Positions 1,112-45,302 of a stretch of 64,000 bases of DNA are shown here, in pieces. The stretch's first letter is position 1. Each line of letters begins with the position of its first letter. The translations under genes and the position numbers were made by a program. This DNA is from Candidatus Thorarchaeota archaeon (GTDB taxonomy: Archaea > Asgardarchaeota > Thorarchaeia > Thorarchaeales > Thorarchaeaceae): the NCBI GenBank assembly GCA_048882045.1, contig JBHLRZ010000002.1, forward strand, positions 128,001 to 192,000. The letters are read 5' to 3'. The notes beneath the pieces are model-generated. The model was not told where the DNA came from. It worked only from the letters and a program-made list of their open reading frames with translations, and searched no databases.

Positions 1112-1363
1112 GTGAGTGTGACTGATGTGATTGTCAACAGAATCAAGGAGCTTCGAGAACTAGAGATGTCGAAGGCATCCAATCATGACGATTGGACTCA
1201 AGAAGGCCTAGCACGTCGTTTGGGTGTCACACGTCAGACTATAATCTCCATCGAAAAGGGTACTTACAATCCTTCCCTTCTGCTTGCGTTCAAACTTTCA
1301 CGCATCTTTGAGATGAAAATTGAAGATATGTTCCAGTACAGAGATGATAAAGATGCAAACTGA
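1112..1363 (+). CDS. Cro/C1 (XRE) HTH transcriptional regulator
   Basis: TQEGLARRLGVTRQTIISIEKGTYNPSLLLAFKLS. Confidence 0.92.
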   Translation: MSVTDVIVNRIKELRELEMSKASNHDDWTQEGLARRLGVTRQTIISIEKGTYNPSLLLAFKLSRIFEMKIEDMFQYRDDKDAN

Positions 1364-1649
1364 AATGGGTGAAACCTTTCTGATGTTCTATGTAACACTT
1401 GGACTTGTTCTTTTGATCAATGCAGTCATTTTGCTATACATCAAGAGAATCCAAGATGAGCGCTATCTACAGATCTTGGGTTTGGGAGGTCGAAACGCGT
1501 TCGTCTTTGTGATGATTATTTTGCCAATAATAAGTGCGTTGCAATTCATGGGTCTTCCTTGGATAGTTCCAGGATTCTCAGTCTTTGTATTATGGATATC
1601 CTCATTCTTTGCTCTCTATGGTTCAAGTTACTATTACTACAGGAGTTAG
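1353..1649 (+). CDS. Small membrane protein, DUF2178-like (start uncertain)
   Basis: Three TM segments, DER motif, C-terminal YYYR; follows the XRE gene. Confidence 0.7.
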   Translation: MQTEMGETFLMFYVTLGLVLLINAVILLYIKRIQDERYLQILGLGGRNAFVFVMIILPIISALQFMGLPWIVPGFSVFVLWISSFFALYGSSYYYYRS

Positions 1650-2036
1650 ATGAAACAAGGAGGAACAATGACAATGAATCGTAGTCTAAAGACAGCCCTG
1701 AGTATTGTAGCAACTGTAGCAATTGTTTTTGTGATACTTTGGATTCTAGGTTTGTACAATCTGAGTAGCTATGGTGGAGCCATCGGAGGTATGGTTGGTG
1801 GTGTTCTTGGAGCGAGCTATATGCGGCGTTTCTATGATGAGCGGTTCACACAGATCATGAATCTCGCTGCAAGGAACGCCTTTGTCTTTCTGGTGATCAT
1901 CCTCCCTCTGACTTCCATTGTTCTTGTTTCAGTTGAAGAAGTCACACTTCAAATCGCAGCAGGTCTTGTCGTTGTGCCGTGGATATCCTCGCTCATCATT
2001 CTCTACCTGTCGCTGTTCTATTACTATCGAAAATAG
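1650..2036 (+). CDS. Small membrane protein, DUF2178-like, paralog of the upstream gene
   Basis: DERFTQIMNLAARNAFVF and YYYRK mirror the upstream ORF. Confidence 0.72.
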   Translation: MKQGGTMTMNRSLKTALSIVATVAIVFVILWILGLYNLSSYGGAIGGMVGGVLGASYMRRFYDERFTQIMNLAARNAFVFLVIILPLTSIVLVSVEEVTLQIAAGLVVVPWISSLIILYLSLFYYYRK

Positions 2037-2044
2037 ACTCTGTT

Positions 2045-2070
2045 CGAATAAGAAAAATGGTAGCGGGTAG
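2045..2070 (-). repeat. tRNA-iMet 3'-end copy 1 (att-like), 26-bp direct repeat
   Basis: CGAATAAGAAAAATGGTAGCGGGTAG is identical to 2422-2447; core TGGTAGCGGGT equals the tRNA 3' end at 3162-3172. Confidence 0.88.
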
Positions 2071-2123
2071 CGAAACAAGAATAGCAAAATTCAACTCAGA
2101 TTCATCACGTATTTCCACCACCA

Positions 2124-2447
2124 ATGCAAATCTTTGATCCTGCAACTGGCATAGTTGCAATCCTCGCTGGAGTAATACTCTCCTCGCTCATTGGTGGATT
2201 GTGTCTTAGGTATGTCTACAGAAACTCAGACCATTTGTTTGTTGGTGTAATGATAATCATCTTGGGATCTTTTGGGGTCTTCTGTACTCTATTTGCATGG
2301 TCGTATATATTCTCACATGTAGATTCATTCCTCCCTATAGGAGCTAGAATGACAATCCTCGGATTGGTAGTTCTACTTCCAATAGCCATCGGATTTGTTA
2401 CTACATCGGGTTTCAATAGAACGAATAAGAAAAATGGTAGCGGGTAG
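2124..2447 (+). CDS. Hypothetical 3-TM membrane protein (cassette cargo)
   Basis: 107-aa hydrophobic ORF between the repeats; its stop codon lies inside repeat copy 2. Confidence 0.65.
   Translation: MQIFDPATGIVAILAGVILSSLIGGLCLRYVYRNSDHLFVGVMIIILGSFGVFCTLFAWSYIFSHVDSFLPIGARMTILGLVVLLPIAIGFVTTSGFNRTNKKNGSG
2422..2447 (-). repeat. tRNA-iMet 3'-end copy 2 (att-like)
   Basis: Exact copy of 2045-2070. Confidence 0.88.
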
Positions 2448-2600
2448 TTTGAAAGGCAAGCTTCTTGACTGCCTTAGTAAAGTAATGGTCTTGAAAGATT
2501 AATATGGTTAGAATTATCAGATGATACTAGGGCATGCAGGACTAAGGAATCTAGCAACAAATTTGATGTCTTTATACAGAATCGTGGAGGAGGATTATTC

Positions 2601-3113
2601 ATAGTTGAAGGCAAAGATGAGCAGCTAGAGAAAGAGCTCTATGACCCGATAATAGCAGTGCTCAGAGAACGCTTTAGTGAAAAAGGTAAGTGCATATTAG
2701 ACACAACCGATCGACTCTTACATACTGATAATAGGATAAATCTAGATAATGTGGCACTTCTGTCCCTTAGCGTTGAGAGAAAGTTCCCTGATCTGATAGG
2801 ATGTCTTGACATCAGTGAAACGATATTTTCAGAGGAAAGTAGACTGATTGTGGTAGAAATAAAGAGAGGAGTTTTGACTCTTGGGGATTTATACCAAGTA
2901 AAGATGTATGCTGAAGTACTTCAGGCTTACTACGCGATTCTGATATCTCCTAGTGGGTTTCAGAGAGAACAAAGAAAGGCCATTATCGAAATTCCCGAAC
3001 TACTCAACTTTTGTGCTCAGGAATATGATCGTCAGATTGTAGTGATGTATTGGAGAGAAAATACTCTTGAAATAGATGAGGAATTATATTATGAGGACCC
3101 ATTAGAAACTTAA
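2601..3113 (+). CDS. PD-(D/E)xK restriction-endonuclease-like protein (cassette cargo); start 2601 (ATA) or 2658 (GTG)
   Basis: EKELYDPI...FPDLIG...IVVEIK...DLYQVKMY motifs; GGAGGAGG at 2586-2593. Confidence 0.7.
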   Translation: MVEGKDEQLEKELYDPIIAVLRERFSEKGKCILDTTDRLLHTDNRINLDNVALLSLSVERKFPDLIGCLDISETIFSEESRLIVVEIKRGVLTLGDLYQVKMYAEVLQAYYAILISPSGFQREQRKAIIEIPELLNFCAQEYDRQIVVMYWRENTLEIDEELYYEDPLET

Positions 3114-3161
3114 TTCCTTATCAGTTGAGATAATGTAGAGGGGTGAAATGAAAAGAAGAAG

Positions 3162-3303
3162 TGGTAGCGGGTGGAGGATTTGAACCTCCGATCTCGGGGT
3201 TTCCGAAGCGGGAGCTCAAAGCGTCATCGCTTTATGAGCCCCGCGGGATAGGCTTCACCCACGTGCGGACGAATCCACACAGGACTGGCTTCCCCAACCC
3301 GCT
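3162..3303 (-). tRNA. tRNA-iMet(CAT) with a D-loop intron (~3254-3284) and a canonical 37/38 intron (3201-3232); CCA encoded
   Basis: After intron removal: AGCGGGT TG GGGA AGCCAGGCCTA TCCC G CGGGG CT CAT AA CCCCG AGATC GGAGG TTCAAAT CCTCC ACCCGCT A CCA; A1-U72 and consecutive G-C anticodon-stem pairs indicate initiator. Confidence 0.92.
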
Positions 3304-3350
3304 TTTATTTAACCGTTCGTTTGAACAAACACAGCGACCGAGTCTGACGA

Positions 3351-3362
3351 CCCCAACCCGCT
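3351..3362 (-). repeat. Upstream duplicate of the first 12 nt of tRNA-iMet
   Basis: AGCGGGTTGGGG (minus strand) at both 3351-3362 and 3292-3303. Confidence 0.85.
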
Positions 3363-3485: not shown

Positions 3486-4421
3486 GTGAAGATTTCTGAG
3501 AGTGTCTTGGATGCGATTGGGAATACATCCTTAGTGCAATTGAAGAAGGTGGTTCCTGACAATCATGCAAGAGTATTAGTGAAATTGGAGTGGGAGAATC
3601 CAACGGGGAGCATGAAAGACCGGATGGCCCAGTCCATGATTGAAAAGGCGGAGGAAGATGGAAGATTAAGTGCTGGTGGTACTGTTGTAGAGTATACAGG
3701 AGGAAGCACGGGCACATCGCTGGCATTGATCTGTGCTATCAAAGGATATCGTTTCCAAGTTGTTTCCTCAGATGTATTCAGTCAAGACAAGCTAAACCAC
3801 ATGAAGGCATTGGGCGCAGAACTGACAATCGTCCCAAGTAGGGGACTTGGGATTAGGAGAGAATTAATCGAGGAGATGATAGAAACCGCTCAAAAACTGA
3901 GTGATTCTCCTGGTACCTACTGGACAGACCAACTGAACAACAAGGACAATGTGTCGGGCTATTTTCCGTTGGGTGAAGAGATTTGGGACCAGACAGGTGG
4001 TAAGGTCGATGCTTTTGTGCATGTGGCTGGGACAGCCGGATCTATCATCGGTACTTCAAGAGTATTGAAGGAGCACAACCCGCAGGTGAGAATTGTTGCT
4101 GTTGAACCTAACGAGTCCCCAGTTTTGTCGGGAGGTGAGAGTGGTTCACACGACATAGAAGGAATTGGGATTGGGTTCCTTCCACCCCTCTGGGATGGTA
4201 GCCTTGTCGATGAAGTCGTTCGCATTCCAACTGAAGAGGCTAAAGAGATGGCAAGATTACTAGCAAGAGAAGAGGGACTATGCGCAGGCACTTCATCAGG
4301 TGCAAATGTGGCTGCAGCCATAAAGGTTGCCAAAGAATTGGGTCCTAGCGCAACAGTAGTTACGCTGTTAGTCGATTCGGGTCTGAAGTACTTGAGTACA
4401 GATCTTTACAAATCCAGTTAA
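3486..4421 (+). CDS. cysK: Cysteine synthase family PLP enzyme
   Basis: KLEWENPTGSMKDR, GTAGS, GTSSGA. Confidence 0.88.
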   Translation: MKISESVLDAIGNTSLVQLKKVVPDNHARVLVKLEWENPTGSMKDRMAQSMIEKAEEDGRLSAGGTVVEYTGGSTGTSLALICAIKGYRFQVVSSDVFSQDKLNHMKALGAELTIVPSRGLGIRRELIEEMIETAQKLSDSPGTYWTDQLNNKDNVSGYFPLGEEIWDQTGGKVDAFVHVAGTAGSIIGTSRVLKEHNPQVRIVAVEPNESPVLSGGESGSHDIEGIGIGFLPPLWDGSLVDEVVRIPTEEAKEMARLLAREEGLCAGTSSGANVAAAIKVAKELGPSATVVTLLVDSGLKYLSTDLYKSS

Positions 4422-10834: not shown

Positions 10835-10930
10835 TAGGTTTCAGACTATGTCTGAACCTATACCATTTCCTTTGTGTTGGCGGATACGTCCGCACGGGAT
10901 GTGGCCCTAGGGGCTGAACCACAAACAAAG
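10835..10930 (+). promoter_or_regulatory. Structured 5' leader of rpl15e (eL15 r-leader-like, K-turn-like motif)
   Basis: TAGGTTTCAGAC/GTCTGAACCTA hairpin; CTTTGT...ACAAAG closes GCGGA-TACG-TCCGC and GGGATGTGGCCCTAGGGGCTGAACC. Confidence 0.65.
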
Positions 10931-43711: not shown

Positions 43712-43733
43712 TGGCGCAGGGGATTAGATTTGA
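43712..43733 (-). repeat. Degenerate tRNA-Ser 3'-end copy (att-like)
   Basis: TGGCGCAGGGGATTAGATTTGA vs spliced tRNA end TGGCGCCGAGGATGAGATTTGA (19/22). Confidence 0.65.
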
Positions 43734-43868
43734 CTTATATGATGGTTCCAACCCTCAAAGAATGTTTTTAATTTGTTAAACTAGCTCGTGATCACTCATT
43801 CAATTTATGCACACATATGTTCCCAGAACTATAGGACTGAGCGCATCATTCATGATCTTAGGGTTTCA

Positions 43869-44393
43869 CTATTCTTTGTCGGGATTAGGGTTGCCCTGTT
43901 CACTTTGAACTGGAGAATGGTATCCAAGCTTTTTGAGAGTTTTATATAGAAACTTGCTGGAGTCGAGTGATTCTGATGATCTCCAACGCTTTGCGAAATC
44001 TGCCTGAATAGGTTCAATCTTCTCCCACCATGCCATTGTCATTACTGCCATCGCTTCAGGTATTAGTTCTGCATCAGTAATCTTGTCTTCAATCAGCTTT
44101 CCCATCGAGTCAAAAAAGGAGCTAACATGAATGAACTTTGCCCAATTCTTCGAATTTCCAGTTGGTCCATATTTTGCCATGAACTGTTCAAAGTTGCTCC
44201 AGTTCCACTCCCCAACTACTTCGAACATATCCTCAAGGAACTTTTGGTCCGCCTGTTTATGAAAATCCAGGAATATAGATGCGCGTCTTGACTTCGCTAA
44301 ATTTCTAATAGAAAGTACACTCATGATCACTCCTATCACGACGCTCATTGCGGCTAGTATTATCGAAACAGTTTGTACATCTAACTCCTGCAT
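43869..44393 (-). CDS. DUF4760-like membrane-anchored protein (cassette cargo)
   Basis: N-terminal TM, F..KYGP, FFDSMGKLI, WWEKIEP; TATA-like element at 44421-44429. Confidence 0.65.
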   Translation of the reverse strand: MQELDVQTVSIILAAMSVVIGVIMSVLSIRNLAKSRRASIFLDFHKQADQKFLEDMFEVVGEWNWSNFEQFMAKYGPTGNSKNWAKFIHVSSFFDSMGKLIEDKITDAELIPEAMAVMTMAWWEKIEPIQADFAKRWRSSESLDSSKFLYKTLKKLGYHSPVQSEQGNPNPDKE

Positions 44394-44494
44394 GAGTATC
44401 GCCCCGAATCTCTTGTTTAATTTCACAGGACGATTCTCCCATATAAAAGACCTATCCAATTTTTGAGCCGATTGCGATATTCTCGAGCAATTTG

Positions 44495-44522
44495 AAAATG
44501 GTGCCGAGGATGAGATTAGAAC
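44495..44522 (-). repeat. tRNA-Ser 3'-end copy (att-like)
   Basis: AAAATGGTGCCGAGGATGAGATT matches 45150-45172 at 22/23 and continues AGAAC like the intron-less T-loop. Confidence 0.88.
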
Positions 44523-44572
44523 AAAGCCATCATCCGAATTCAAGATAAAATTCATAATCAAGATTAATCAAG

Positions 44573-45139
44573 TTGAGAACCATGGATTTTTGGACTGGAT
44601 TAATTGCTTGTTTTGATGAGGAATCAGTCTGCAGGTTGAAGGAATTATGGAGAATTTTGACAAATTCTCCAGATTTACATGGTCAAATATATGAGCGAGT
44701 ACCACCCCACATAACATTGTTTGAACATGAAGAAATAAGAAAACAAGAATTCTATGATGCATTAGAATCCGCTATTTCGAAATACAACTCCTTTTCACTG
44801 AAATTTACTGGTTTAACTACGTTTCCTGCTACCCATGTTTTCTATCTTAATCCAGAATATTCTAACAATCTTCATTCTTTAAGAAAACTCTGCCTCGAAA
44901 TATTAGAAGATCAAGGAGTAATTTTGAATCGAAAGCCCGATAGTACGTGGAATCCACACTTGACTCTTCTATTAGACCTCCCAACTCAAGAAATATCCAA
45001 AGCAGTTGAGATTTCCCAAAATTATCTTGATTTACAGATTACAAAGCCTTTTGTCGTAAAGATATCCCATATCGAATTATTCTCTTACCCTCCCTATAAA
45101 GCTGAAAAGAAGTTCTTTCTACACAAAGCAGCTGAGTAA
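44573..45139 (+). CDS. 2H phosphoesterase (2'-5' RNA ligase family; cassette cargo)
   Basis: Two HxT motifs (PHITL, PHLTL); visibly AT-rich. Confidence 0.85.
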   Translation: MRTMDFWTGLIACFDEESVCRLKELWRILTNSPDLHGQIYERVPPHITLFEHEEIRKQEFYDALESAISKYNSFSLKFTGLTTFPATHVFYLNPEYSNNLHSLRKLCLEILEDQGVILNRKPDSTWNPHLTLLLDLPTQEISKAVEISQNYLDLQITKPFVVKISHIELFSYPPYKAEKKFFLHKAAE

Positions 45140-45153
45140 TTGGAGAAGTAAAA

Positions 45154-45302
45154 TGGCGCCGAGGATGAGATTTGCTCAATCTCGTCGGATTGACGAAACT
45201 CTTGAACTCATGCGTGCGAACACACCGGTTGGCTTGGCCTTTGGCTTCCGAAGAAACCGGTTTTCAAGACCGGCGCCGTAATCCGGGCTTGGCTACCTCG
45301 GC
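45154..45302 (-). tRNA. tRNA-Ser(TGA) with a 37/38 intron (45231-45262) and a T-loop 58/59 intron (45172-45201); CCA encoded
   Basis: GCCGAGG TA GCC AAGCCCGGATTAC GGC G CCGGT CT TGA A|A ACCGG, variable arm TGTGTTCGCACG, ATGAG TTCAA|AT CTCAT CCTCGGC G CCA; both introns form BHB motifs. Confidence 0.93.

Follow-up and report, generated by a model that had tools for sequence, protein, structure and literature searches.

Single-gene units at tRNA 3' ends in a Thorarchaeota genome: the tRNA-iMet array and its relatives

Downstream of a tRNA-iMet gene in a Thorarchaeota genome, copies of the tRNA 3' end delimit two short intervals with one gene each. The question raised by this locus is what such units are, how they came to stand beside the tRNA gene, and by which enzyme they were moved. 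It was addressed in the window (the whole stretch of 64,000 nucleotides that was analysed), in the remainder of the genome and in relatives. The genome (G000) is a MAG with an assembly of 3.63 Mb in 93 contigs, a G+C content of 44% and a completeness of 93%. The original prediction, made from the letters of the window, was an integron-like serial capture of minimal cassettes at tRNA ends by a recombinase acting in trans, as part of a genome-wide system.

The array at tRNA-iMet and its cargo

The anchor and insertion site of the array is a tRNA-iMet(CAU) gene with an encoded CCA (3162..3303, minus strand). Two introns are present, one in the D-loop (about 3254-3284) and one at the anticodon (37/38; about 3201-3232). 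The tRNA folds as a cloverleaf (fold z -5.4), and intronless alleles of it are present in relatives. ARAGORN (default settings) and Rfam detected no tRNA in the window, because the genes have multiple introns; the intron-rich tRNAs were located by T-arm and acceptor patterns. An RNA of another kind, the eL15-Euryarchaeota ribosomal protein leader (RF03144, 53.9 bits), is found in this Asgard genome at 10880-10925 (plus strand) of the window.

An optional segment of about 58 nt lies between the TATA box and tRNA-iMet (3304..3362, minus strand). It sets in with a displaced repeat of the tRNA 5' end, contains a T-loop-like motif and was found in about half of the iMet loci of the genus. The distance from the TATA box to tRNA-iMet is 36-39 nt or 94-98 nt, and once 114 nt (seen at L009, L014, L016 and L217). 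In several genomes the segment opens with the first 9-12 nt of the tRNA and resembles a collapsed, displaced 5' part of it. There is no clear relation between its presence and how many units follow the tRNA.

The predicted exact 26-bp direct repeat (2045-2070 and 2422-2447) was borne out by the sequence. A third repeat copy with 73% identity is the tRNA end itself (3149-3174). The 11-mer of the tRNA end occurs three times, versus a mean of 0.32 in shuffled sequence, and none of 100 shuffles reached three or more occurrences. The stretch truly copied from tRNA-iMet is restricted to its last 11 nt, or 13 nt with one mismatch. Copy 1 (2422..2447, minus strand) thus repeats the tRNA 3' end exactly over 11 nt (2435-2445), or over 13 nt if one mismatch is allowed, and continues into a tail of 13 nt. 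This T-rich tail is common to both copies and differs from the tail of tRNA-iMet, so that the predicted recurrence of tRNA end plus tail holds for the former and not for the latter. Tail identity of at least 13 nt between adjacent sites is rare (2 of 116 pairs), which rules out the tail as part of the repeated site; the downstream tail normally belongs to the next unit.

Going away from tRNA-iMet, the intervals from CCA to CCA measure 727 bp and 377 bp. Each contains one gene oriented towards the tRNA, and the predicted PD-(D/E)xK nuclease and 3-TM protein were recognized again from the conserved PD...ExK residues and three hydrophobic segments. Unit 1 (2435..3161, GC 38%) is composed of a pyrimidine tail, the nuclease gene antisense to the tRNA, an upstream region and a tRNA-end copy, in this order. 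Unit 2 (2058..2434, GC 40%) carries the 3-TM gene. It is followed by copy 2 (2045..2070, minus strand), the distal and oldest tRNA-end copy, whose tail lies at the border to the backbone. Beyond the array, the backbone encodes an HTH_3 regulator and DUF2178-type membrane proteins (1112..2036, plus strand) and is kept in this position in many relatives. A single Logan contig of 1975 nt covers both copies without any difference to the window, and a second assembly, GCA_048881785.1, has the identical gene order at the iMet array.

The nuclease-like ORF of 151 aa (2658..3113, plus strand; frame open from 2520) gave weak profile matches to HSDR_N_2 and Cas4. Its dN/dS is 0.23 (codons 47-197, 151 codons). 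All versions read from iMet units have lost by mutation the ATG at which homologues begin (window 2600-2660), so that the start of the cassette form probably lies about 18 codons downstream. Ahead of the gene, the unit also retains conserved DNA. Within the ExK motif, E is replaced by K in the homologues of L014 and L217. Behind a more distant homologue there is an iMet copy in L217 and a degenerate copy in L216. Others occur outside arrays, beside genes that we read as restriction-modification-like; those of G012 have neighbours read as methylase- and glycosylase-like, and no tRNA-end copies. With its presence in 3 of 28 genus genomes and its occurrence outside arrays, the cargo nuclease was rejected as a general mechanism. 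The second cargo gene encodes a membrane protein of 107 aa with three hydrophobic segments and of no known family (2124..2447, plus strand). It reads on into copy 1, without the stop codon that its homologue has in the tail; for this reason the tail of the TM unit seems to have been overwritten by that of the neighbouring site.

Arrays at other tRNA genes and in relatives

The same architecture had been predicted for a tRNA-Ser in the window and was found there. The tRNA-Ser(UGA) gene (45154-45302, minus strand) has an anticodon intron and a T-loop intron, the latter being the reason why the gene was hidden. Its array (43712..45302) has T-loop-type copies that end at 44499 and 43712 and two units of 655 bp and 787 bp with one gene each. 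The supposed genome-wide occurrence was likewise confirmed: about 10 of roughly 40 tRNA loci in this genome are followed by copies on the same strand, namely iMet, Leu (twice), Ser, Asn, Phe and Val, plus three loci with one copy each. Matches upstream or on the other strand are mostly other tRNA genes or belong to the same arrays. Whether and where a tRNA gene is interrupted by an intron varies freely among close relatives (D-loop, anticodon, variable arm, T-stem, T-loop). Even Leu genes interrupted in the T-loop are the anchors of arrays, and the copies in these are mostly free of the intron.

When cargo was compared among relatives, as the original prediction had proposed, it was found to vary and to be reordered. 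The first 15 iMet loci read in the genus hold between zero and five units with differing cargo. The nuclease unit recurs with lengths of 727, 729 and 729 bp and 90% identity from end to end, at rank 1 here and at rank 2 in both L013 and L014. A unit of 377 bp homologous to the TM unit stands at rank 1 in L014, i.e. the order nuclease-TM seen here is reversed to TM-nuclease. A homologue of the TM gene was also found at rank 2 in L002, in a unit of 340 bp. Arrays at iMet are present in several other Thorarchaeota genera; neither iMet nor Leu arrays were found in G045, G052 and G068. Rich in arrays, by contrast, are g1, G054, G065, G066 and G099.

The G066 iMet locus has 11 copies over 22 kb, each of them a 3' half of 55-85 nt, with differing intron alleles. 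Long iMet arrays with at least 11 copies were observed at G066:C10:4739-26670 (L109, L110) and in G065:C42 (L147, L148). The differing anticodon-intron alleles in their displaced halves are a record of tRNA intron exchange between lineages.

The 60 Leu units have a median length of 624 bp; 53 are below 1.5 kb, and mostly one ORF fills the unit. Several recur from end to end in two to four species at different ranks. One unit of 477/500 bp, 82% identical from end to end, is located at Leu(GAG) in one species and at Leu(CAG) in another. No end-to-end unit was found in common between Leu and iMet arrays. The cargo is mixed (TPR, GNAT, deaminase, methylase, defence ATPase and membrane proteins), and some units reach 2-6 kb. 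Genes face the tRNA in 47 of 78 cases, and the units appear to carry their own upstream regions.

Insertion sites, enzymes and mechanism

Of the 68 undamaged distinct unit ends in Leu arrays, 56 have the start of the copy at -22/-23, within the T-loop; the copies stop exactly at the CCA. The T-loop purine of the copy equals that of the host tRNA in 66 of 71 Leu cases. Mismatches of the Leu copies increase with rank (rho 0.36, p 0.002, the copies not being independent); comparing the ends of arrays, the first copy is better than the last in eight and worse in two. The rise with rank indicates that units are added next to the tRNA. In iMet arrays of this genus identity begins at -11 (20 of 21 copies), and family-wide the iMet copies fall into classes of about 11-17, about 22 and 55-85 nt. 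Together with the differing intron alleles of G066, these classes point to many donors as the source of the displaced halves. Species differ in the T-stem of tRNA-iMet. At positions -15 to -12 a non-host T-stem allele is matched perfectly by 7 of 21 iMet copies (background 6%) and the host allele by none of the 21, from which we infer that the units may hold eroded remnants of longer tRNA fragments.

No further structure was detected at the sites. Both junctions of the window, checked for attC-like hairpins, folded no better than shuffles (z +0.2 to +1.6), and no inverted symmetry was found at 60 reconstituted Leu circle junctions. The score for terminal inverted repeats equalled the control (9.4 vs 9.4), and no common motif was found at the crossovers. 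Pyrimidine-rich tails flank every site and are explained as terminators. Four sequencing runs contained no circle or empty-site (skip) joints, a weak test since assembled contigs were searched. As a description it is very probable that the units are discrete, precisely bounded and enzyme-free, that they are reordered and exchanged between species and loci, and that they are added in a polar fashion.

The stand-alone recombinase of Xer or SSV type expected by the original prediction was looked for in this genome and not found. Tyrosine recombinases (PF00589) gave no match here even at E 10, nor did an integrase HMM built from the lineage. The SSV-type integrase (PF16795) was not found in the five genomes searched, this one included. 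Serine recombinases were likewise not found (PF07508 in none of 28 genus genomes, PF00239 without a match in this genome), and neither were Cas1 (PF01867) and reverse transcriptase (PF00078) in this genome. With the genome being 93% complete, absence of a recombinase is not proven. Tyrosine recombinases occur sporadically in the lineage (8 of 28 genus and 23 of 59 order genomes), with the diversity that would be expected for mobile elements. About 35 Thorarchaeota integrase neighbourhoods were without a tRNA att site. No integrase or remnant of one turned up when about 80 units, 21 metagenome loci and 20 further iMet loci were searched in six frames, a finding that bears on the alternative, named with the original prediction, of decayed integrase-bearing elements. 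No large element was found at the tRNA end of any array read. Viral contigs contained no Leu site, and their two iMet-like matches are unrelated. None of the three outcomes named beforehand as speaking against the prediction, i.e. absence of the pattern elsewhere, invariant cargo or decayed large elements, was encountered. In the single-contig Thorarchaeota genome G052 no Xer-like or other PF00589 gene was found. All five genomes tested, whether they have arrays or not, encode a type IB topoisomerase (in this genome on C19, at about 57141); enzymes of this type are related to tyrosine recombinases.

One plasmid-like element of about 16 kb in G097 (G097:C24:810-19450, L184) encodes an integrase, a ParB-like protein and a D5-type primase-helicase, and runs directly into iMet-type copies. 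It has two cargo genes in common with unit 1 of the G015 iMet array (62-75% aa), which shows gene flow between plasmids and arrays. The element may be a unit carrier or a mis-assembly. The tRNA-iMet of the G097 genome is on another contig than the iMet-type units of the element. Its integrase (L184:18320-19444, minus strand) and an 80% homologue both lie upstream of a Rab GTPase gene; as a helper the element was set aside as a candidate only, since its integrase family sits at Rab-gene or other non-tRNA sites. An integrase-bearing element in a Promethearchaeota assembly (L212) contains related tRNA-like sequences at 1470-1547 (plus strand) and 4152-4235 (minus strand) with the same terminator-like tail.

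For the movement of the units we favour, at about an even chance, non-autonomous mini-islands that excise as circles and re-integrate by exchange within the tRNA tail, using tyrosine recombinases provided in trans by passing elements. A unit would leave as a small circle through exchange between its two flanking tRNA-end copies, and one exchange within the common tail would bring the circle back into a tRNA gene that is intact. The crossover would fall at T-loop position 54/55 for Leu and Ser and at about 64-66 for iMet in this genus. Re-entry would restore the tRNA, supply a new terminator-like tail, and push the old end and the older units away. The enzyme, as the least certain step, would be a tyrosine recombinase brought in by transient integrative plasmids or viruses; supply in trans is proposed because none was found resident. 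The short iMet copies are probably due to the polymorphic T-stem in an essential gene, exchanges with a mismatching T-stem having been purged. As to the in-trans part of the original prediction, the enzyme was not found, nor was any integrase read in the lineage seen at a tRNA target. About ten tRNA targets per genome, which would need many different helpers, also speak against a recombinase in trans, as do the Rab-gene position of the G097 integrase, the viral contigs lacking the Leu site, the circle junctions lacking inverted symmetry and the missing circle joints. In favour of mini-islands are the units that recur with matching ends at other ranks or loci, the fixed Leu boundary, the decay of copies with rank, the T-loop purine that follows the host tRNA, the non-host T-stem alleles in iMet copies and the integrase-bearing plasmid-like elements of the lineage.

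The many different tRNA targets would fit the main rival, an insertion directed by homology and unlikely overall, in which a break near the tRNA end is repaired by the host from incoming DNA without a dedicated recombinase. The left end would pair with the donor tRNA and upstream genes, and the right end would anneal to the donor's downstream copy through 11-22 nt of microhomology; the unit would be copied in precisely and the old end displaced. No recombinase of any tested class in this genome and a copy length that differs by tRNA and lineage are consistent with this, as is the 13-nt tail which, apparently overwritten, removes the stop codon of the TM gene and looks like conversion. However, an edge as sharp as that at -22/-23, seen in dozens of Leu units unrelated to each other, calls for site-specific cutting or exchange at the birth of the unit, units move between Leu loci sharing only about 85 nt, and no nuclease is common to all arrays (the cargo nuclease being limited to the 3 of 28 genus genomes). 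A host-encoded accretion of single-gene modules at many tRNA 3' ends, using 11-22 bp of identity and no tyrosine or serine recombinase, Cas1 or reverse transcriptase, is put forward tentatively, as an unlikely reading. A resident host enzyme not recognized as a recombinase, such as the core type IB topoisomerase or an unannotated protein, is distinctly improbable. The topoisomerase in all five genomes tested, the lack of an Xer-like gene in single-contig G052 and the pyrimidine-rich tails at every site would suit it, yet the topoisomerase is also present in G045, G052 and G068, which have no iMet or Leu arrays, the tails are explained as terminators, and the crossovers have no common motif.

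That each unit is the leftover of a large integrase-bearing element, spread only by cis-mobilisation beside a newly integrated large element, is rather improbable. The units contain no integrase fragments; they are compact, each mostly filled by one intact gene, their ends are conserved, and they are found at rank 1 no less readily than farther out, whereas CIMEs always lie distal to an ICE or IME (PMC7563491) and no large element was found at the tRNA ends here. Such an origin is established for streptococcal CIMEs (PMC7563491), as is integrase loss for archaeal elements (PMC8371274), and it would accord with the two genes that one G015 unit has in common with an integrative plasmid and with the units of 2-6 kb. 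Chance matches or an assembly artefact can hardly be credited in spite of the short 11-nt match and a MAG in 93 contigs: no shuffle reached three copies, an independent contig and an independent assembly agree, unit boundaries are conserved across species, and out-of-zone matches are mostly other tRNA genes.

Comparison with known systems

The miniature accretion at tRNA ends is real, lineage-wide and apparently undescribed. No published description of such arrays was found in the literature searched, the coverage of which was incomplete; among the text of an Asgard mobile-element paper reached by keyword search, no passage deals with them (PMC11529989). The arrays show where and how an Asgard lineage stores and swaps accessory genes, about a quarter of its tRNA genes being followed by precisely bounded modules of one gene. 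Such modules would be missed both by island finders that need an integrase and by integron finders that need attC. With the sites defined to the base, the missing enzyme is directly testable.

Three known systems found no support. A casposon is defined by a Cas1 casposase and terminal inverted repeats, but no PF01867 match was found in this genome and the TIR score equalled the control. Islands of large serine recombinases (SCC-type) call for a serine recombinase, and neither PF07508 (0 of 28 genus genomes) nor PF00239 (searched in this genome) was found. A tRNA-primed retroelement would involve a reverse transcriptase and units without a promoter region; PF00078 was not found in this genome, and the nuclease unit keeps conserved upstream DNA.

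Tyrosine-integrase tRNA islands (PMC4383910, PMC8371274) resemble the arrays in the displaced direct 3' tRNA fragment, the fixed boundaries in the T-loop or on the anticodon side, and the tandem build-up at one tRNA. In the Islander collection an integrase is required per island, sizes peak at 13.6 and 39.9 kb, tandems of three or more make up 4 among 3919 islands, and the T-stem region and the anticodon are known integrase subsites (PMC4383910). The arrays differ by units with a median of 0.6-0.8 kb, by the lack of an integrase, by copy numbers that reach 11 or more and by up to about 10 tRNAs per genome. An intact tRNA with a direct cognate fragment and a fixed subsite (Leu -22/-23) are present here; an integrase inside was not found. 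Should a passing plasmid integrase be at work, the arrays would be an extreme miniature of known tRNA-island accretion.

Streptococcal CIMEs are similar in being bounded by att sites, in having no genes for recombination or transfer and in having accreted at gene or tRNA 3' ends (PMC7563491). They measure 1.2-13 kb, or are gene-less microCIMEs, and both their origin from ICEs or IMEs and their place on the distal side of these are characteristic (PMC7563491), whereas neither kind of element was found here and the tRNA is adjoined by single-gene units. With regard to a CIME-like origin, one unit has two genes of an integrative plasmid, and integrase remnants elsewhere are lacking. In Prochlorococcus tycheposons (10.1101/2020.12.28.424599) and Alteromonas islands (PMC4898812) partial tRNA copies also stand between added cargo, newcomers displace older units, and the cargo is unrelated to the core phylogeny. 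Tycheposons, however, have their own integrases and number one or two per genome (10.1101/2020.12.28.424599), and the cassettes described for the additive flexible islands of Alteromonas are multi-gene clusters (PMC4898812); the units reported here are enzyme-free and mostly single genes.

Archaeal integrons and CALINs are enriched in Asgard genomes (PMC9668308) and resemble the arrays in having small, mostly single-gene cassettes, polarised addition, shuffling between genomes and an enzyme possibly in trans. The integron-like part of the original prediction stands as behaviour, given the serial polarised insertion seen in the decay of Leu copies with rank (rho 0.36), and falls for the machinery: neither IntI nor an attC hairpin was found, and it is the tRNA end that the site copies directly. 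As neither IntI and attC nor any tyrosine or serine recombinase, Cas1 or reverse transcriptase turned up in this genome, the arrays are to be regarded as integron-like in their working and not as integrons. In the event that host machinery acts, the closest relatives of eukaryotes would have a novel route of horizontal gene transfer and, if the system is encoded by the host, an analogue of the integron built on different machinery.
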